Below, one piece after another: positions 4,418 through 41,315 of a stretch of DNA of 43,265 bases. Numbering within the stretch: position 1 is the stretch's first letter; every line of letters starts with the position of its first letter. The position numbers and the translations under genes are program-made. This DNA comes from Escherichia phage MarieHeimVoegtlin_Bas70. The notes beneath the pieces are model-generated. The model was not told the DNA's origin and did no database searches. It worked only from the letters and a program-made list of their open reading frames with translations. The stretch is from the sequence record PQ850619.1; one strand, 5' to 3'.

Positions 4418-4878
4418 TGATGGGCTTTTTCAAAGTAACTGACGTACCGTCTCGTCGCGTAGTCCAGTACGCCCGCGTGTCTGGCTCTGGCGAGAACGTG
4501 GTATTTATTGAGGACGAAAGTGTACTCGGTACACCGGTAGATGATATGCCGTTTGCAGATAAAACCGGTATTGCGTTGCCCGCCGCCGGTATGCTTTATG
4601 AAATTCCGTATCTGGCGGACGCTGGCGACGTGTATTTCTCTGCGCAACCGCAGGACGCTGAACTGGCGGGCGGCAGCGCAACCATCACTGTCGAGGTTAA
4701 GGCAGGCAAAGCGCCGTATTCTCTGACCTGGTACAAAGACGGTAAGGAAGTGGTGAATGCGCCTGAGGAGGCTCTGTCTCTGACGGTTAATGCGGTCGGC
4801 GAATACTTCGTTAAAGTTACTGATGCCGATGGAGTAGAGGCGGTAAGCAAAGCGGCGAAGGTTACTAAGCCAGAATGA
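4417..4878 (+). CDS. Ig-like domain protein (possible capsid decoration or accessory)
   Basis: 153 aa. C-terminal segment KAPYSLTWYKDGKEV...GEYFVKVTDADG matches the Ig-like strand pattern also seen in the 8189-8539 protein. TAATG overlap with the upstream gene. Confidence 0.5.
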   Translation: MMGFFKVTDVPSRRVVQYARVSGSGENVVFIEDESVLGTPVDDMPFADKTGIALPAAGMLYEIPYLADAGDVYFSAQPQDAELAGGSATITVEVKAGKAPYSLTWYKDGKEVVNAPEEALSLTVNAVGEYFVKVTDADGVEAVSKAAKVTKPE

Positions 4879-4883
4879 TAAAA

Positions 4884-4908
4884 GGCCCCATTATGGGGCC
4901 TTAGTTTT
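4884..4908. terminator. bidirectional intrinsic terminator
   Basis: ggcccc-attat-ggggcc hairpin flanked by AAAA on the 5' side and TTAGTTTT on the 3' side. Sits between convergent genes ending at 4878 (+) and 4908 (-). Confidence 0.6.
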
Positions 4909-5111
4909 CAACGGAATCTTGTGTTTAAATCCTGCTCATGGACAACCCTCAGAACAGTGTCATAATCCCCGTATCTTCCAGGTTCAAATATATCTAATGC
5001 CTTGTAAGCAGACATTGCGTCAGGGAAAACCTGCAGAACCTTTTTAACCCGGCACAAGTCACCGTCGAACTCTTCATCGAACTCTTGAACTACTTCGCAA
5101 ATTGCATACAT
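4908..5111 (-). CDS. hypothetical protein (antisense moron in head module)
   Basis: 67 aa. ATG with strong AGGAGGTG Shine-Dalgarno. Own promoter at 5136-5167 and terminator at 4884-4908. Opposite orientation to the surrounding structural genes. Confidence 0.55.
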   Translation of the reverse strand: MYAICEVVQEFDEEFDGDLCRVKKVLQVFPDAMSAYKALDIFEPGRYGDYDTVLRVVHEQDLNTRFR

Positions 5112-5135
5112 TTTTCACCTCCTGTTTAAGTTAAC

Positions 5136-5167
5136 TGAATAGTACCCTATTATATTGGGGTGTGCAA
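5136..5167 (-). promoter_or_regulatory. sigma70-like promoter (TTGCAC-N17-TACTAT) with embedded AATAG-N4-CTATT palindrome
   Basis: Read on the minus strand: TTGCAC, 17-nt spacer accccaatataataggg, TACTAT. The 32-bp block is identical to 14240-14271. Confidence 0.55.
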
Positions 5168-5442
5168 ACTATTTATTTACGTATTCCAGTTATTCCTCCG
5201 AATTGTAAATGTTGGAATAAACTATTCGAATAGTTGACTTTTCACTAAAAATATGATAAGCTCCACCTGAGCTTGTGAAGTATGAACAAGCGACCGCGGC
5301 GCGGGCAGGTAACGGAGCGGGACGTAAGTCCTGAGTGTAGTTACGCTGACGCGTTCGGAAGGGCCATACTCTATTGCTTGTGTAAAAAGTAACTGGTTTA
5401 CTGAGATTACGCCGTTTCTATGTTTAAATGATAAGGACTAGC

Positions 5443-5469
5443 GCCCCGCTTTATGGCGGGGCTTTACTT
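5443..5469 (+). terminator. hairpin, weak terminator or attenuator
   Basis: gccccgc-tttatg-gcggggc perfect 7-bp stem followed by TTTACTT, just upstream of the spanin gene Shine-Dalgarno. Confidence 0.35.
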
Positions 5470-5486
5470 ATCGAGAAAGGGGAAAC

Positions 5487-5873
5487 ATGAATCTTAAAGC
5501 AACTGTCGTAGCAGGAGCATGTTTCATCATCCTGGTTTACGCACACGGCATCTACCAGTATCGCAGCGGATGGAACGAAGGCCGGGCTAATCTCGTTTCG
5601 CAGCAACAGCAGAAAGCACAGGCTGAGTTAGCGAAGAAAACACAACGGCAGCAGCAGGATGAATCGAAGGCCGCCGCCGCTGACAACGAAGGCAAGACGA
5701 AATCAGAGGTGATTACCCGTGAAGTCGTTAAGTACATTAAAACGCCTGGTCGCAGTGTGTGCGCTTTTGACCCTGAGCGCGTGCAGCTCAAGTCCCGCGC
5801 CGTCGCAAACGCCAACTCCATCCCCGGATACGACGATGATGCAGCCGCCGTGCAAACTGGCACCGCCAAGTAG
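5487..5873 (+). CDS. i-spanin (Rz-like inner membrane spanin)
   Basis: 128 aa. N-terminal transmembrane segment ATVVAGACFIILVYAHGIY. Then a Q/K/E-rich predicted coiled-coil periplasmic region. An overlapping +1-frame lipoprotein gene follows. Confidence 0.6.
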   Translation: MNLKATVVAGACFIILVYAHGIYQYRSGWNEGRANLVSQQQQKAQAELAKKTQRQQQDESKAAAADNEGKTKSEVITREVVKYIKTPGRSVCAFDPERVQLKSRAVANANSIPGYDDDAAAVQTGTAK

Positions 5874-7834: not shown

Positions 7835-7862
7835 AGAGGGACTTCGGTCCCTCTTTTCATTT
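7835..7862 (+). terminator. intrinsic terminator (UUCG-loop hairpin plus T-run)
   Basis: agagggac-ttcg-gtccctct followed by TTTCATTT, directly after the capsid gene. Confidence 0.6.
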
Positions 7863-30400: not shown

Positions 30401-30429
30401 ACTATAATAGCTAACTATTCAGGTGTCAA
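30401..30429 (-). promoter_or_regulatory. sigma70-like promoter (TTGACA-N17-TATAGT) with AATAGCTAACTATT palindrome in spacer
   Basis: Minus-strand reading gives TTGACA, 17-nt spacer, TATAGT. Embedded in the 3' end of the 30415-30618 ORF. Confidence 0.55.
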
Positions 30430-32949: not shown

Positions 32950-32978
32950 ACTATAATAGCGAACTATTCACATGTCAA
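32950..32978 (-). promoter_or_regulatory. sigma70-like promoter (TTGACA-N17-TATAGT) with AATAGCGAACTATT palindrome
   Basis: Minus-strand reading gives TTGACA, 17-nt spacer, TATAGT. Divergent from the HTH regulator gene at 33043. Confidence 0.6.
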
Positions 32979-33042: not shown

Positions 33043-33258
33043 ATGCAACCATCTGAACTAGGTATCCGTGTAGAACAACGCCGTAAAGAACTCGGCATCT
33101 CCCAGCGCCGTTTGGCGGCCCTGACCGGCGTTTCCCAGGGCGCGATTAACCAACTGGCACTTGGAGTAACTCAGGACGTCCGCCCGGCAACGCTGTTCAA
33201 ACTGGCGGAAGTTCTGGAAGTAGACGCCAAGTGGCTGGCGTTAGGTGAAGGGGCTTAA
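33043..33258 (+). CDS. XRE-family HTH transcriptional regulator (Cro/CI-like)
   Basis: 71 aa. Classic HTH ISQRRLAALTGVSQGAINQL. AAGGAG Shine-Dalgarno. Sits in a divergent promoter region carrying the repeated palindrome. Confidence 0.7.
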   Translation: MQPSELGIRVEQRRKELGISQRRLAALTGVSQGAINQLALGVTQDVRPATLFKLAEVLEVDAKWLALGEGA

Positions 33259-33275
33259 AGCCCCTTTCTTTTTAC
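33248..33275 (+). terminator. intrinsic terminator
   Basis: ggggct-taa-agcccc hairpin overlapping the stop codon, followed by TTTCTTTTTACC. Confidence 0.6.
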
Positions 33276-35510
33276 CTATTCCAAATCCTCCTCTGTCACC
33301 ACCAGCATCTCATTTGGTTCGTATAGTGTCTTCGGCCTTAATCTATCCCCTATTCTTTCGGGTATACGATATGTTCTCGGTACTACTTCGCCGTTAGCAT
33401 CGCAACCAAGCATTAGTTCTCCATCTTTCAACATTTTATCAAGATGGGTGTTAGTCACAGAGAAGTCACCGGAACGAGCCACTATCTGCTGCTGAGTAAA
33501 ACCGCGACCTGTGTCATCTGACTGTTGCAGGTCTTCCAGTGCCGAAAGTATTGACTCCTTCCTTACTTCATCCCTGCCGCGTTTAACTTCTTCCTTTACT
33601 TTTTGCTTACCTTCTTTCGTCAACCCTTCTTCCCGCTCTTTCTCCTCGTCAGTTTTGAACGGCTCGAAACCCCACGGCATCAACACAAGCGCCTTGTGTG
33701 GTTCAGGCAGGTCCAGGTTTACGATTGTGCCGTATTCCTCTGTGCTACCCAGGAACTCAACCGCTCGGTATTCTTTAGGCGGCGGCGCTTCACGGAACTG
33801 TACCGACTCCAGCACCATGCCAACCGTCTTCTGCTGAGGCCCGTGCTTGAATTTCGAGTGATATACGTTTATCTGACGGTCGGTTGCACGTTCGATTGTC
33901 AGTTCCACGTCAACACCCGCATACAGCGCCCCACTGCCGCGTGCTTTCTTTCCACCCTTCGGCGTATGGTGGACAACGCCTACTGCGGCTTTAGTTGCAT
34001 CGCGTACTTCTTTCAGAATGGCGATAACTTTACCCATGCCGATTGCTGTTGATGAACTGTTCTCGTCGAACTTATCAATCGTCAGGGCCAGCGTCTGGTT
34101 AAGGGTGTCGAAGGCAACCATGCCAATAGGTTCATCCCCTGCGGTTTCGCGCATTAACTTAATCAGGCTTTTAAGTTTGCCGACTTCGCCCATATCGATG
34201 ACGTGTACATAATCTTTACCTTCCCCGCCATATTTAGCCGCTAGTGCATCAATACGGGTGCGTGTAGCTGCGCCACCCTCACCATCAATATAGAAATGGT
34301 GGCAACGCTGGGTATCCGCCCCCGCAAACCGGTACCCGGCGGCGCTCAGGTACATCATCCCCAGCGTATAGAATGATTTGTACGTGCCAGATTCCCCGAC
34401 GATATCCCATATACAATCTGATGGCATGTACCCTTCAACGACGAAATCAGCCTTTACCGGCTCCGGTAACTCGTCCCCCTCTGAGTCCTCCTCTGAGTCC
34501 TCGTCGTCTTCCAGGTCGTCGAGGCTGCAAGTTACTGGGTCCTCGTTCTCTGTGCGGTGTAGTTCTTCAATCTCTTCTTCCGGTAAATCAGGCAGAGCCG
34601 CACGAATGCTGTTAATGCTGATAGGTTGCTTGTCTACGTTAAGCTCGTCTGGCAGGCCGCACATACGCAGGGCCAAATGCTGTCGGCGGTTAAGCTCGGT
34701 GCAAGCGCCGTTGTTTGTATGCTGGCAGACAAAGCGCACTTCTTTACCGTCGAGCATTATGCTGGTGGAGCCCTTGCCTGTATGCAGATGTTCGTTAGGG
34801 CATGGCACTTCGTACCCGCGCCCGGAAGATAAAGCGTCAAGGCCAAGCTCGGCTTCGCAGAAGTGTGCTATATCCGCGTTAAGCCCATGCTCATCAGCGG
34901 CAAGTGTTTTAGCCTCACGCTTACGCAACCCCATCTCTTCGGCTTTCTTGATGTACCGCTCGGCACGGATAACACGCCCTTCTGTAACCGTTATCTTCGA
35001 CTCTTTGTGCGGCAGGTAGATAAGGCGGTTGCCATCTTCCGTGCAGTGGTCGCGCAACGCTTCGTCTATTTCTAACTCTGCACAAATAGCACGTTGCACC
35101 ATCCACGCGTCGTTAGAGTTAAACGGCGTGCGAGCTGGAACCAGAACGCGGAAAGCGTAATCTCCGTTTTTACACACATGCTGATGCGATGCCGTTGTAT
35201 GCAGAATATTGAAGAACGGTGCGTTCTTGAATTTGCGGGTAAGGTCGCGGTACTGAGTACGGTTGAGATGGTCAAAATCGAACTTAACCACACTGTCTTC
35301 CAGAATAGCGTTCTTACGGCGACCGCCAACAGGCGCAATAGCTTTCTGTTTAATCTTGGCCGCGTCGTACTCTTCCTTAGTCCATGACGGGTCCACGGAT
35401 AAACGCTTCGATGTATCGCAGACATACTCCACAAACTGCTCGAGCGGCATCTCACGCGCTACAGGGTTTTTATCGAATGTGTTACGCAGCGTTGCAAAAA
35501 CAATATTCAT
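33276..35510 (-). CDS. putative primase/helicase (RecA-fold AAA ATPase with N-terminal primase-like region)
   Basis: 744 aa. Walker A GESGTYKS and Walker B-like MVAFD in the central domain. Cys/His cluster CPNEHLH...CQHTNNGAC in the N-terminal half. C-terminal region resembles a winged helix. Confidence 0.65.
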   Translation of the reverse strand: MNIVFATLRNTFDKNPVAREMPLEQFVEYVCDTSKRLSVDPSWTKEEYDAAKIKQKAIAPVGGRRKNAILEDSVVKFDFDHLNRTQYRDLTRKFKNAPFFNILHTTASHQHVCKNGDYAFRVLVPARTPFNSNDAWMVQRAICAELEIDEALRDHCTEDGNRLIYLPHKESKITVTEGRVIRAERYIKKAEEMGLRKREAKTLAADEHGLNADIAHFCEAELGLDALSSGRGYEVPCPNEHLHTGKGSTSIMLDGKEVRFVCQHTNNGACTELNRRQHLALRMCGLPDELNVDKQPISINSIRAALPDLPEEEIEELHRTENEDPVTCSLDDLEDDEDSEEDSEGDELPEPVKADFVVEGYMPSDCIWDIVGESGTYKSFYTLGMMYLSAAGYRFAGADTQRCHHFYIDGEGGAATRTRIDALAAKYGGEGKDYVHVIDMGEVGKLKSLIKLMRETAGDEPIGMVAFDTLNQTLALTIDKFDENSSSTAIGMGKVIAILKEVRDATKAAVGVVHHTPKGGKKARGSGALYAGVDVELTIERATDRQINVYHSKFKHGPQQKTVGMVLESVQFREAPPPKEYRAVEFLGSTEEYGTIVNLDLPEPHKALVLMPWGFEPFKTDEEKEREEGLTKEGKQKVKEEVKRGRDEVRKESILSALEDLQQSDDTGRGFTQQQIVARSGDFSVTNTHLDKMLKDGELMLGCDANGEVVPRTYRIPERIGDRLRPKTLYEPNEMLVVTEEDLE

Positions 35511-35635
35511 TTCTTTTTCTCCGCACGTTCTAAGGCTTCCTGCATACGGCGCATTGCGCGGTTCATCTTTACCGGTGCGAAGAAGTCAGCGCCGTGTTTC
35601 TGGCGGCGTAGCTGTGGAACTATTAACTTTGTCAT
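35507..35635 (-). CDS. hypothetical small basic protein (41 aa)
   Basis: ATG at 35635. Its stop overlaps the primase-helicase ATG (ATGA). Hand-translated as MTKLIVPQLRRQKHGADFFAPVKMNRAMRRMQEALERAEKKK. Confidence 0.3.
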   Translation of the reverse strand: MTKLIVPQLRRQKHGADFFAPVKMNRAMRRMQEALERAEKKK

Positions 35636-35704
35636 TGTATAATCCTTATGCTTACTTTGATGATTTGTACTTTAGCCCCGACGTTCTGGCGTTGGGGTTT
35701 CTTT

Positions 35705-35995
35705 TTACCGTTTAGCCAACCCTTCCAGCAAATTTTTATACTCTTCAAAATATTCCTCGACCAAATCATCGCCGAAATAGAAGTCGATATACTCGAGATT
35801 ATCTCTTACGTTAAGCGATGCCGACATGGTGCTTAGTTGGCGTAAGCTAATTAGCTTCATTTCTGTTTCTACGCAGAAAGGCCGGTAGGTATCAAGATGG
35901 CAAGAGATATTGAAGCATAAAGCGAACTCTCCGGCCACGGAGTGAACCGTATACACTTCGTTTTCTGCTTTATTGTGGAAAATTACGCCTTTCAT
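35705..35995 (-). CDS. hypothetical protein (96 aa)
   Basis: ORF overlapping the upstream HTH gene stop. No recognisable motif. Confidence 0.4.
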   Translation of the reverse strand: MKGVIFHNKAENEVYTVHSVAGEFALCFNISCHLDTYRPFCVETEMKLISLRQLSTMSASLNVRDNLEYIDFYFGDDLVEEYFEEYKNLLEGLAKR

Positions 35996-36174
35996 TTCAC
36001 GTTCTCCTTAATCCATGCTTCGACTTTATTACGGTCAAATGTTCCCGGTAAACGGCGGCCCATAACCTTAATACAGCAGTCAGGGAATTTGCCGCTGCGC
36101 AACCAGTTATTAATCGTCTGACGTGTCACCCCGATACGTTCAGCTACTTCATTCTGCGTCATATAATGCGACAT
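35992..36174 (-). CDS. small HTH DNA-binding protein (excisionase/AlpA-like fold)
   Basis: Start taken at ATG 36174 with AGGAG Shine-Dalgarno (track ORF extends to 36288). HTH in MTQNEVAERIGVTRQTINNWL. 60 aa. Confidence 0.55.
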   Translation of the reverse strand: MSHYMTQNEVAERIGVTRQTINNWLRSGKFPDCCIKVMGRRLPGTFDRNKVEAWIKENVK

Positions 36175-36205
36175 TTTTATATCTCCTGTTTGTTTGGTGA
36201 AACTG

Positions 36206-36234
36206 AGTATAGGATAGCGGGAATGTAAAAGCAA
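36206..36234 (-). promoter_or_regulatory. sigma70-like promoter (TTGCTT-N17-TATACT)
   Basis: Minus-strand reading gives TTGCTT, 17-nt spacer, TATACT, about 30 nt upstream of the HTH gene start. Confidence 0.45.
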
Positions 36235-36271
36235 CCAATCTCTGTAATATTTAATCTTTACAAAAATGTTA

Positions 36272-36301
36272 TTGAAAGTTCTTGACACATGTTTGTATAA
36301 T
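36272..36301 (+). promoter_or_regulatory. sigma70-like promoter (TTGAAA-N18-TATAAT)
   Basis: TTGAAA at 36272-36277, 18-nt spacer, TATAAT at 36296-36301. Rightward, divergent from the HTH gene promoter. Confidence 0.5.
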
Positions 36302-36307
36302 GGTTTT

Positions 36308-36527
36308 GGGACTTGTATATATTACGGAGTTGACGAACCCTCCCCGAGGGATTCGTCAACCCCTCCCAGACAGCTGAGATGCTTGCCTTGTGGTTTAAGG
36401 ATAAGTGTATCTAAATCTCATTTAAAGAAGTAACCCGCTGAAATATCTACTGTTTCTTAATGTGCCGTAGATTCGCAACCGTAAAAATGTAACGATTATT
36501 GGGCAGGCTTAAGCCTGCCCTTTAGTT
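36308..36527 (+). ncRNA. candidate small noncoding RNA or structured leader
   Basis: Bounded by the promoter at 36272-36301 and a hairpin terminator at 36501-36527. No ORF longer than about 11 codons. Strong 5' hairpin at 36329-36360 (9-bp plus 5-bp stem). Confidence 0.25.
36501..36527 (+). terminator. intrinsic terminator
   Basis: gggcaggc-ttaa-gcctgccc perfect 8-bp stem followed by TTTAGTT. Confidence 0.5.
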
Positions 36528-36592
36528 ACCAAGTAATAAGAATAAAGGCACAACCCTCCCCGAAGAATCACAACGGCAACGTAACTATTCTC

Positions 36593-36621
36593 TTGCACAC
36601 CCCAACATAATAGGTTACTAT
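36593..36621 (+). promoter_or_regulatory. sigma70-like promoter (TTGCAC-N17-TACTAT) with AATAG-N4-CTATT palindrome
   Basis: Reverse-orientation copy of the 5136/14240 promoter block with two mismatches. About 35 nt upstream of the gene at 36656. Confidence 0.55.
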
Positions 36622-36655
36622 TCACTTATCGAAACGAGACATAAGGAATTTAGAA

Positions 36656-36874
36656 ATGAACAAAGCGACCGCAAGCGTAGTTTCCGCAATCAAACAAGTT
36701 TACGGCATCGATATTTCAGAGCGCGTAATTATCGGGAACAAGCGCAACTTCTTTACGTTCGACACCGACGGAATGGATGAAAATGATTTTGTTAACGTAC
36801 AACGTTTCGCTAACGGTAAAGGACTTCGTAACGAGCCAGCGGGTTACAAGAAATTTGCTATCTACTTTAAATAA
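36656..36874 (+). CDS. hypothetical early protein (72 aa)
   Basis: ATG with AAGGAA Shine-Dalgarno. First gene of the rightward small-gene cluster. Confidence 0.5.
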   Translation: MNKATASVVSAIKQVYGIDISERVIIGNKRNFFTFDTDGMDENDFVNVQRFANGKGLRNEPAGYKKFAIYFK

Positions 36875-36886
36875 GACAGAGGAGTG

Positions 36887-37078
36887 ATGGTTATGTTTAA
36901 GAAGGGTCAGTTGGTTCGGAATAAATCCACCGGCGATTTATTTACGGTAATAGAGTCGGAGTTAATGTGGTTCGGTTTTGTAGAGGTTAATAGCGTAGTT
37001 GGGTTTGGTAAAGGGTTACTCCGTAAATGTGATTTAGAACTCATCGGCAACAATTTTAAATTCAAAGGGGCGAAGTGA
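36887..37078 (+). CDS. hypothetical protein
   Basis: ATG at 36887 (or 36893) after AGAGGAG Shine-Dalgarno. Track ORF begins at GTG 36884. Confidence 0.45.
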   Translation: MVMFKKGQLVRNKSTGDLFTVIESELMWFGFVEVNSVVGFGKGLLRKCDLELIGNNFKFKGAK

Positions 37079-37296
37079 TGATTAAGCTAGAGATTAAATC
37101 GAAAGAGACAAGACAAACCGTAGCCAGTAAAGAATTCAACAGTAAATCTGAAATTGGCCCCTGGCTAAAACAGTACGCACATTTGCAGACTGTTTACATC
37201 CTTCTAACGAAAGCAAGTGGTGTAGTCACTTTACTTGAACCGGCATCTAATCATGATGCTCGTGCCGACGACTCTGAGGGAGGTTGCCGTGGATAA
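37075..37296 (+). CDS. hypothetical protein (73 aa)
   Basis: ATGA overlap with the upstream gene. ORF only. Confidence 0.4.
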   Translation: MMIKLEIKSKETRQTVASKEFNSKSEIGPWLKQYAHLQTVYILLTKASGVVTLLEPASNHDARADDSEGGCRG

Positions 37297-37338
37297 TATT
37301 TTAATTGTCAGCGCTGTTTATGTGGGGTGGAGGTTGAT

Positions 37339-37533
37339 ATGAGTCCATATAATGAATTCCGCTTACGCCGTCTTGTTGGTGGGCTGCGCGCCGCCGAGTT
37401 TGGCGTTGAATGTTGGGAAAAGGCGAAGTACACCCCATGGAAGTCGTGGAATTTGGCCCACGCTAAGGCGGTAGCGCAGTACCGGGAGTACAAGTTAAAT
37501 AGTTTCCTAAAGCACCACGGGGTAGAGCTATGA
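37339..37533 (+). CDS. hypothetical protein (64 aa)
   Basis: ATG with GGAGG Shine-Dalgarno. Track ORF begins at GTG 37327. Confidence 0.45.
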   Translation: MSPYNEFRLRRLVGGLRAAEFGVECWEKAKYTPWKSWNLAHAKAVAQYREYKLNSFLKHHGVEL

Positions 37534-37673
37534 GAGAAGCATTCGAACGATGGGCCGTAGTCGAGGGTCTGCCGGTTAACAAGGGTTCGAAGAAAGAGTA
37601 CCTGAACGTTAAGACGCGTCTTGCGTGGCGGGCGTGGAAAGCTGGTGCGCAAGCTGTGATGAATAAGGGGTGA
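37530..37673 (+). CDS. hypothetical small protein (47 aa)
   Basis: ATGA overlap with the upstream stop. Ends 3 nt before the next ATG. Hand-translated. Confidence 0.3.
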   Translation: MREAFERWAVVEGLPVNKGSKKEYLNVKTRLAWRAWKAGAQAVMNKG

Positions 37674-37676
37674 TTT

Positions 37677-37871
37677 ATGGGTAAGTGGATTAAGTGTAGT
37701 GAGCGGATGCCGGGTGACTTTGAAGATGTCCTGGTTTCGGATGGGGGTAACGTTGAGGTGATGTGGTGGGACTGCGACGGTTTCTGGGATTGTTGGGCGC
37801 CGCGCAACTCAAACATCGATATAGACGATGTGACTCACTGGATGCCGTTACCTGAGCCGCCAGAAGTGTGA
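37677..37871 (+). CDS. hypothetical protein, DUF551-like (W/C-rich, C-terminal WMPLPEPP)
   Basis: 64 aa. The C-terminal W.PLPEPP motif is characteristic of a widespread small phage protein family. Confidence 0.45.
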   Translation: MGKWIKCSERMPGDFEDVLVSDGGNVEVMWWDCDGFWDCWAPRNSNIDIDDVTHWMPLPEPPEV

Positions 37872-38014
37872 TGTTATATTGTAACAATAGTTTGGGATTT
37901 TACTGAGTGACTTACGCTGCTACACAGCAGCGTACAACTTTAGATTAGTGTCGTCAAAAAGCGACACTTTCACCAAACGCAACAATCGAAGTGACTATTG
38001 CAGGAGACGCAACA

Positions 38015-41282: not shown

Positions 41283-41315
41283 ATCCCGGCCCTGACCCAG
41301 CCGGGATTTTTTTTA
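41283..41315 (+). terminator. intrinsic terminator
   Basis: atcccggc-cctgaccca-gccgggat hairpin followed by TTTTTTTT, after the endolysin gene. Confidence 0.7.

Follow-up and report, generated by a model that had tools for sequence, protein, structure and literature searches.

We examined a non-coding stretch, referred to hereafter as Unit 1 (positions 36272–36527), in the DNA of Escherichia phage MarieHeimVoegtlin_Bas70 (Bas70; record PQ850619.1, 43,265 nucleotides (nt), the whole of which we call the window), a phage that by its sequence is a Kagunavirus within the Guernseyvirinae. On a gene map taken from the annotation of the near-identical phage Bas76, a leftward arm runs from ~36.2 to 24.4 kb and carries genes for a helix-turn-helix (HTH) protein, helicase-primase, exonuclease, single-stranded DNA-binding protein and DNA polymerase, and a rightward arm begins at ~36.6 kb with ~14 small open reading frames (ORFs), continuing through two holins and an endolysin, further small ORFs, and finally the genes for terminase, portal and head. 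Beyond a small leftward insert (~4.9–5.2 kb) lie those for the spanins, scaffold and major head protein and the full set of tail genes, as far as 24.2 kb. Unit 1 sits exactly where the leftward and rightward arms diverge (positions of all principal features are collected in the table). A preliminary description of the sequence had placed it in a divergent control region between replication and early genes; the divergence point stands, although the rightward arm carries lysis and packaging genes as well and is not only early.

Table. Features of Unit 1, its surroundings and Unit 2 (window coordinates).
Feature	Position	Strand	Remarks
HTH_17 (excisionase-like) DNA-binding protein gene	35992..36177	−	first gene of the leftward replication arm
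Leftward promoter P_L, TTGCTT-17-TATACT	36206..36234	−	back to back with P1; read from sequence
Promoter P1, TTGAAA (36272–36277)-18-TATAAT (36296–36301)	36272..36301	+	11/12 sigma-70 match
Unit 1 RNA (allele A/alpha), predicted primary transcript	36308..36527	+	~215–220 nt
−10-like hexamer TATATT	36318..36323	+	~+11 to +16 of transcript; other alleles without the same form
5′ hairpin	36326..36363	+	inverted repeat; GTTGACGAA...TTCGTCAAC at 36329–36360
Alpha core	36453..36553	+	near-invariant 3′ domain common to A, B and C; E. coli and Salmonella phages
Intrinsic terminator T, GGGCAGGC-UUAA-GCCUGCCC + UUUAGUU	36501..36527	+	−13 kcal/mol
Conserved spacer between T and P2	36528..36592	+	segment GAAGAATCACAACGGCAACGTAAC common to alpha, beta and gamma
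Promoter P2, TTGCAC-17-TACTAT	36593..36621	+	between T and first rightward gene (ATG 36656)
P2-type repeat, copy 1	36592–36625	+	repeat search
P2-type repeat, copy 2	14272–14239	−	repeat search
P2-type repeat, copy 3	5167–5136	−	repeat search
P2-type repeat, fourth copy	38223	+	regular-expression scan
Unit 2 cassette	5234..5469	+	paralogue of the D allele
Unit 2 promoter, TTGACT (5234–5239)-17-extended −10 TGnTAAGCT	−10 at 5257–5262	+	
Unit 2 RNA	from ~5269	+	D domain 5269–5376 (first 108 nt)
Terminator T2, GCCCCGC-UUUAUG-GCGGGGC + UUUACUU	5443–5462	+	

Unit 1 opens on P1, one of only three sites on both strands of the window that match the sigma-70 consensus at 11 of 12 positions, and invariant among all relatives carrying the same allele (type A, see below). 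The other two sites (TTGACA-17-TATAGT, at 30401–30429 and 32950–32978, both on the minus strand) lie in the leftward replication arm; promoter-like sites as such are not enriched around Unit 1 (4 found in 35000–38000, against 4.5 ± 2.0 expected from shuffles). With its start inferred from the position of the −10 element, the predicted P1 transcript (221 nt as folded) has a minimum free energy (MFE) of −70.5 kcal/mol (z = −5.3), and 0 of 200 shuffles were equally stable. The 5′ hairpin continues through CCCTC/GAGGG to a 14-bp stem that has a single bulge and is capped by a CCC loop (core GTTGACGAACCCTC-CCC-GAGGG-A-TTCGTCAAC at 36329–36360, flanked by GGAG and a C-rich tail, CCCCUCCC); all MFE and centroid structures computed for type-A sequences contain it. 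The unit closes on terminator T, encoded by GGGCAGGC-TTAA-GCCTGCCC (36501–36520; eight pairs, seven of them G-C) followed by TTTAGTT to 36527, the 7-bp core of which (GGGCAGG/CCUGCCC) is invariant while the loop and closing pair (C-G or U-A) vary among sequences sharing its 3′ allele, alpha. All of these elements had been reported in the preliminary description, together with a limit of about 11 codons on any ORF between them, and all are present: the promoter as described, a hairpin at 36329–36360 that proves longer than reported, an 8-bp-stem terminator whose U-tract is interrupted (UUUAGUU), and, within 36308–36527 on the plus strand, a longest ATG-initiated ORF of 11 codons (16 codons, from a TTG, if any start codon is allowed). 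No usable Shine–Dalgarno (SD) sequence is found on any plus-strand ORF in that interval, and ARAGORN finds no tRNA or tmRNA in Unit 1. Searches against Rfam 15 returned 0 matches at the gathering threshold in the whole window, only noise at E ≤ 10 in 35500–37500 and 4800–5600 (10–20 bits against thresholds of 35–160), and 0 matches at E ≤ 1 in six related loci. By these signals, Unit 1 is an autonomous transcription unit heading the rightward arm.

Smaller features lie within and around the unit. Close to the transcript start, the −10-like hexamer TATATT might act as a promoter-proximal pause element dependent on sigma-70, which we offer as a lead only; −10-like pause elements are needed for loading of Q and AlpA, and one is present in putL (PMC9371919, PMC9378689). 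C-rich, anti-SD-like CCCUCCC(C) motifs, found by eye and likewise a lead only, occur three times (36338–36349, 36359–36366 and 36554–36565), two of them within or beside the 5′ hairpin and the third, which varies among relatives, past the terminator. T itself is the center of a loose extended dyad (36461–36552), invariant in all alpha alleles, with arms GUGCC (36462–66)/GGCAC (36547–51), AUUC/GAAU and GUAAC (36490–94)/GUUAC (36524–28), the 3′ half of which extends beyond the termination point.

That the locus instead encodes a small protein, from a minus-strand ORF of 33 or 38 amino acids (aa) or from a plus-strand micro-ORF, is hardly credible. The records of Bas76 and 590B do annotate coding sequences (CDSs) here, and annotated minus-strand CDSs occupy 36258–36359 (33 aa, over P1 and the hairpin) and 36509–36625 (38 aa, over T and P2); both, however, run across these signals and are absent from other alleles, and the plus-strand ORFs are of at most 16 codons and lack an SD. 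The 38-aa ORF is probably no gene, since it has in-frame stops in four relatives (loci L001, L033, L011 and L013). The public CDSs Bas76_0055, Bas76_0056 and fBCEco01_09, which overlie the P1 hairpin, T and P2, and the D-domain RNA described below (locus L146, 6200–6316), are probably annotation artefacts.

Promoters flank Unit 1 on either side. The −10 (AGTATA on the plus strand) and −35 position of P_L are kept across all aligned alleles. P2, which drives the first rightward gene, is a member of a phage-specific 29–34-nt promoter repeat (TTGCACACCCCAAYATAATAGGKTACTAT), present as three near-identical copies and one weaker, each ~25 nt 5′ of an SD and ATG; two of the copies drive small leftward inserts within the structural module. 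In the Jerseyvirus loci L011–L016 (~1160–1700 in locus coordinates), T is followed by a P2-like promoter, 110–250 nt of non-coding sequence and a second P2-like promoter; this extra stretch, which holds a hairpin (CACTTGCCTTACGGCAAG) and lies before the first gene, may be a further non-coding unit.

The preliminary description had proposed comparison with related phages, for conservation and for covariance of the RNA structure. A BLAST search of phage genomes with 36150–36700 found 389 records, every one from a siphophage of the Guernseyvirinae that infects either E. coli (Kagunavirus) or Salmonella (Jerseyvirus), among them Escherichia phage JSSK01 with 99.5% identity. From phage records and IMG/VR contigs we assembled 55 distinct versions of the intergenic region; a promoter and a terminator-like hairpin occur at the equivalent position in 49 of these by a regular-expression scan and in two of the remaining six by eye (counts of relatives that rest partly on loci fetched by exact words within the conserved core described below). 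The sigma-70 promoter of these relatives lies 286–340 nt 5′ of a conserved anchor, with 215–330 nt of non-coding sequence between it and the terminator-like hairpin. A promoter-to-terminator non-coding unit at this locus is thus strongly supported by the comparison.

The cassette is a mosaic, built from five unrelated 5′ alleles (A–E) and three 3′ alleles (alpha, beta and gamma), Bas70 being A/alpha. Allele A (TTGAAA-18-TATAAT) is shared by Bas70 and ~20 records; the others each have a functionally equivalent promoter in the place of P1, with spacers of 16–18 nt: TTGACA-17-TAAGGT in the K1ind1-like allele B, TTGACA-17-TAAGTT in allele C of Salmonella phages, TTGACT-17-TAAGCT in the K1G-like allele D and TTGACA-16-TAAAAT in allele E. 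Each 3′ allele likewise brings its own terminator-like hairpin at the equivalent place, and the two sets combine in hybrids, B/beta and E/beta among them. In gamma the U-tract after the hairpin (GGUGCCUUCGGCACC) is poor (ACGUUCGUUUCG), and in gamma loci L043–L047 and L057 a (CTCA)n microsatellite of 4–7 copies lies inside the transcribed unit.

The 3′ part of the A/alpha unit is the alpha core, which is nearly invariant and spans T and ~25 nt past it. In K1ind1 and the Salmonella phages it is 89–96% identical at the nucleotide level, against 76–79% for the adjacent HTH gene, and the Salmonella phages that carry it have a helicase-primase only ~52% identical at the protein level. Column identity over 34 sequences is 0.90–0.98 in 36450–36549; this figure is inflated, 20 of the 34 having been retrieved by exact 21-nt words from the core itself, but the 15 loci that BLAST returned are consistent with it. 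A profile built from non-A alleles matches the window at 36453–36556 (E = 9e−25) and again at 5262–5376 (E = 2.4e−11). Conservation of Unit 1 (0.96–0.98) persists 25–60 nt past the termination point, up to P2, and therefore either a read-through RNA or the DNA spanning T would be functional; an RNA ending at T does not explain conservation of the 36528–36592 spacer.

Neighboring genes assort differently from these alleles. The HTH_17 gene (Pfam HTH_17, E = 1.8e−8; an inner ATG, at 36162, is the likely conserved start) is orthologous in all alleles, and homology stops exactly at its start codon. The encoded protein is 56–61 aa long and 82–86% identical to its orthologues in K1ind1 and Salmonella phage S104; the idea that it co-varies with the promoter/leader allele was rejected on this similarity across A, B and C. 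RNA-seq of phage K1B4 lists the HTH gene as early (PMC12645636); we assume, from the names alone, that K1B4 is record OQ696342.1 (vB_EcoS-K1_SXAU_B4), which is 95.8% identical over the Unit 1 region. In the helicase-primase gene (33276–35510, minus strand) the N-terminal ~348 aa are swapped among relatives, many loci matching only at residues 349–744 (79–97% identity), and this swap is independent of the Unit 1 allele carried. A gene for a Cro/CI-type HTH_3 regulator (33043–33258, plus strand) opposes the leftward arm and is equipped with a promoter-like site (32967) and a terminator (33250–33272) of its own; its product is a candidate regulator of the cassettes.

These assortments bear on a further proposal of the preliminary description, that the locus is a replication origin. 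In such an origin, transcription from P1 would open, or prime through an R-loop, the AT-rich and palindromic alpha core. The unit does adjoin the helicase-primase arm, AT-rich flanks surround a GC palindrome, and sequence conservation is high. We nonetheless consider an origin very improbable: apart from three weak C-rich 17-mers the region has neither iterons nor families of direct repeats, alpha is replaced by beta or gamma where the helicase-primase is 79–97% identical and retained where it is only 52% identical or differs in its N-terminal 348 aa, and a homologous unit (Unit 2, below) lies in the structural module, far from replication genes. Alleles thus assort independently of the helicase-primase, and the features that are kept are transcription signals. 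Of the three roles first suggested (small RNA, attenuator or origin), the small RNA (sRNA) and the leader both stay, as does the non-coding unit itself, and the origin is not supported.

The 5′ domains were also examined for conservation as RNA. Alleles B and C, unlike in sequence, are both predicted to form an extended hairpin of ~100 nt that starts ~8 nt from the predicted 5′ end, with an outer helix (AGUUAC/GUAACU), an inner helix (UGUUCA/UGAACA in B, GUUUCA/UGAAAC in C), a GUAAR/YUUAC pairing in which three Watson–Crick types (A-U, G-C and U-A) occur, and an apical hairpin with four unrelated stem sequences. Allele D forms a multi-helix domain of 108 nt, for which 25 distinct sequences are available: 98.3% of cells are paired, against 28–38% in slid controls, and double-change cells number 29, whereas shuffles give 8.5 ± 2.0, none of 500 reaching the observed count. 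One of its pairs is seen as C-G, U-A and A-U, and it contains two invariant tandem G·U pairs, possible on the plus strand only. Covariation thus supports the D domain as a structured RNA, and the domain is a new structured RNA family. Since the helices of B/C and of D are kept by compensatory changes, selection at this locus would act at the RNA level. Covariation is accordingly present in B/C and D, and the A/alpha sequences are too uniform for the same test: type-A relatives are 95–99% identical, and the invariance of the alpha core puts its structure beyond such a test as well. The predicted structure of allele A comes from thermodynamics and positional analogy.

This evidence weighs on the possibility that Unit 1 is a DNA-level control region without RNA function, with P1 as a decoy, competitor or divergent partner of P_L, T as an insulator protecting the P2 operon, and the alpha core as a protein-binding site (for example for the HTH_17 protein or a Cro-like regulator) or a recombination linker. 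Such an account accommodates an alpha core that is invariant rather than covarying and forms a loose dyad around a perfect palindrome, a minus strand that folds nearly as well as the plus strand, mosaic boundaries at conserved short sequences, and two HTH regulators encoded nearby. It fits poorly with the compensatory helix changes in B/C and D and the tandem G·U pairs confined to the plus strand, with the retention of a promoter of near-consensus strength in five unrelated alleles, and with the lack of a region-specific operator motif (counts of ACGGCAA and AGTTAC are not, or only weakly, above genome background), and we regard it as improbable. Two candidate operators or iterons were rejected: ACGGCAA/TTGCCGT, of which ACGGCAA is common genome-wide (31 copies), and the GTAAC/GTTAC words, which are the two strands of the B/C outer RNA helix.

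A BLAST search with the D-allele unit uncovered a second locus, matched with 74–79% identity in ~147 phage records, which include phages with allele A at the first locus. In Bas70 this paralogue, Unit 2, precedes the spanin, head and tail genes: the spanin ATG (5488) lies ~18 nt past T2 and is followed by scaffold, major head protein and tail genes. Unit 2 is >97% conserved over 30 distinct loci from E. coli and Salmonella phages, and the T2 stem shows a compensatory C-G to U-A change. No sigma-70-like promoter of at least 10/12 is found on the plus strand between 5,000 and 24,000, and the plus-strand genes 5′ of Unit 2 end at a strong terminator (4885); the head and tail genes must therefore, unless an unrecognized type of promoter exists, be transcribed from the Unit 2 promoter through T2. 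In architecture Unit 2 resembles a cis-acting leader or gate, not a free-standing sRNA gene. Direct homology between the A/alpha unit and Unit 2 was rejected, being undetectable by nhmmer profile, and as judged by these comparisons the link between the two units is allelic and positional only. In the record of phage fBC-Eco01, promoters and terminators are computationally annotated and a CDS is placed over the D domain.

We tentatively favor, though would not yet call probable, a reading of Unit 1 as a terminator-gated leader that would by default yield a short RNA, by analogy with the logic of lambda PR′-6S-tR′. Host RNA polymerase would initiate at the near-consensus P1 and first transcribe the structured non-coding 5′ leader; by default it would stop at T, releasing an RNA of ~215 nt, and a regulated or fixed fraction of P1 polymerases would pass T into the rightward genes, this fraction being set by the structured 5′ RNA domain (in the manner of HK022 put) or by a phage factor. 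RNA production, regulated read-through and an antitermination determinant are all inferred, and a trans role for the short RNA would be compatible with the gate. Both T and T2 end in a U-tract that is broken (UUUAGUU in T, UUUACUU in T2); tB, the terminator that AlpA controls, is likewise weak and depends on NusA (PMC9371919). A cis role is suggested by recurrence of the D domain in Unit 2, whose terminator lies ~18 nt before the spanin start, and the conservation found past T also speaks for a gate. Processive read-through would pay off because both rightward arms contain internal terminators, compact canonical intrinsic terminators being found, within the arms and at their ends, on the plus strand at 41285, 43189, 3315 and 4885 in the first arm and at 7837, 12443, 14931 and 24252 in the second. 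Those at 4885, 12443 and 24252 are bidirectional and flank leftward-transcribed inserts.

Several observations weigh against a gate. The conserved P2 separates T from the first rightward gene, which would make the downstream genes independent of P1; the attenuator of an early operon envisaged in the preliminary description survives as a leader or attenuator, but with P2 lying between it and the first gene, a placement that an insulated sRNA gene fits equally well. No Q, N or AlpA-like protein was recognized among 9–10 neighboring proteins with Pfam, PHROGs and NCBIfam, a scan that does not prove absence of Q given that Q families share no sequence similarity with each other. The HTH_17 protein was considered as an AlpA/PrtN-type antiterminator and rejected, being a bare domain of 56–61 aa without a match to a PDB AlpA chain; AlpA has eight helices and an N-terminal ring, and at 56–61 aa the phage protein is too small to form a Q/AlpA-type “nozzle” (PMC9371919). 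An alternative antiterminator/terminator pairing could not be shown in Unit 1. The two strands differ little in predicted folding (z = −4.8 for the minus strand against −5.3), which leaves the strand undecided by energy alone, and the overall result on strand asymmetry is mixed. A Unit 2 profile gives E > 10 (nhmmer) against Unit 1 at 36.3 kb, and the K1B4 RNA-seq consists of CDS-level data only (PMC12645636).

Part of this evidence is equally at home with a stand-alone, trans-acting early sRNA gene of ~215 nt, acting on host or phage targets through base pairing or protein binding, which we hold to be possible but doubtful. Its candidate contacts would be UUCGCAACCGUAAAAAUGUAACGAUUAUU (predicted single-stranded, invariant and just 5′ of T) and CCCCUCCC at 36359–36366, and T would additionally insulate the P2-driven genes. 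A near-consensus promoter and a GC-rich terminator enclose the non-coding unit, P2 follows immediately 3′, the ~40 nt before T are invariant and mostly unpaired in MFE and centroid structures, the position is early and promoter-proximal, and StxS provides precedent for a short terminated phage transcript (PMC7547250). Set against this, entire 5′ and 3′ domains are swapped for unrelated sequence in close relatives, and because whole domains are replaced (A–E; alpha, beta and gamma) a conserved base-pairing target is disfavored; conservation also extends past the termination point, and the paralogous D cassette lies directly before essential late genes, where it looks cis-acting. Nor does the RNA resemble Hfq-type sRNAs: its tail, UUUAGUU, is interrupted and not the long U-run typical of Hfq-dependent sRNAs, the candidate seed is swapped with beta or gamma, and no target was found. 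BLAST gave no match across 5,426 E. coli genomes, a search that is blind to short seeds. The first downstream gene was rejected as a target, its two complements of 10–11 nt (repeats I6 and I11) not being kept in relatives with other alleles. By analogy with StxS, the sRNA and the terminator-gated leader are not mutually exclusive, and Unit 1 probably serves as the one, the other or both.

A bolder form of the terminator-gated leader, which we entertain as an unlikely extension of it, is that Guernseyvirinae run both long rightward operons by a previously unknown RNA-based antitermination. The structured 5′ domain (D in Unit 2; the non-homologous alleles A, B/C and E in Unit 1) would be made first and would reprogram E. 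coli or Salmonella RNA polymerase, either alone, as put does, or with a new phage factor; polymerase would then pass both the cassette and the internal terminators of operons of 12–19 kb, and the terminated short RNAs would accumulate and might act in trans.

Guernseyvirinae (the Jersey-like and K1-specific phages) rank among the most frequent phage isolates in therapy and food-safety work, and annotation of their genomes is confined to proteins. If the gates are real, several hundred phages of known sequence would switch their lysis, packaging and virion genes through them, and they would add a new case of RNA- or factor-mediated antitermination outside the lambdoid phages; if instead the units are sRNAs, they would be abundant early phage RNAs with swappable modules. 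P1, the Unit 2 promoter (PU2), T and T2 could serve as ready-made parts for phage engineering. A literature search found no description of cassettes of the Unit 1/Unit 2 type.

Among known systems, lambda OOP, P22 sar, P4 CI and P1 C4 are short non-coding control-region transcripts with a promoter and an intrinsic terminator. Each has a defined target transcript, to which it is antisense or from which it is processed. Unit 1, in contrast, is intergenic, antisense to nothing annotated, and two to three times longer. A lambda-type nut site (boxA CGCUCUUA/UGCUCUUUAACA with a boxB hairpin) was not found, allele A having only AUCUCAUUUAAAG. Two short motifs were picked out by eye: (G/C)UCUAUU, 7 nt, after the hairpin in alleles B/C, D, E and Unit 2, which is a lead only, and CTTGT near 5′ ends, too short to count as evidence.

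The put sites of HK022 lie directly 3′ of each early promoter, putL with a weak −10-like element (PMC9378689). The likeness is to a structured RNA just past a strong promoter, one per long operon and 5′ of terminators, for which no dedicated protein need be found. A put RNA is ~70 nt with two defined stem-loops in a V shape and binds the beta′ zinc-binding domain, whereas the 5′ domains here are a 38-nt hairpin with a single 14-bp stem (A), a ~100-nt hairpin (B/C) and a 108-nt multi-helix domain (D). The P. aeruginosa AlpA/PalpB-tB system is alike in its order of promoter, leader and weak intrinsic terminator before lysis genes, with a small regulator next door, and some database records name the phage HTH protein “pyocin activator”; the phage protein differs from AlpA in being an HTH_17 domain only.

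A close resemblance in layout is to lambda PR′-6S-tR′ and to StxS, the PR′ short RNA that is the default product in Stx phages (PMC7547250): a constitutive sigma-70 promoter, a non-coding transcript of ~200 nt and an intrinsic terminator at the head of a lysis/morphogenesis operon. In Unit 1, T lies 200 nt 3′ of the P1 −10, the rightward arm carries holins, endolysin, terminase and portal, and a −10-like hexamer is present in the initially transcribed region. The two differ in that no Q homologue or Q-binding element was identified for Unit 1, that there is no sequence similarity, that Bas70 is virulent and not lambdoid, that the cassette has several non-homologous alleles, and that Unit 1 has an extra promoter, P2, between terminator and genes. 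Unit 2, by contrast, shares with PR′ the absence of a promoter past the terminator, only ~18 nt separating T2 from the spanin ATG. In kind, then, these units belong with promoter-proximal terminated leaders and phage sRNAs; what appears to be new is the family, its mosaic of alleles, its duplication, with one copy heading each rightward operon, and its presence in virulent siphophages.

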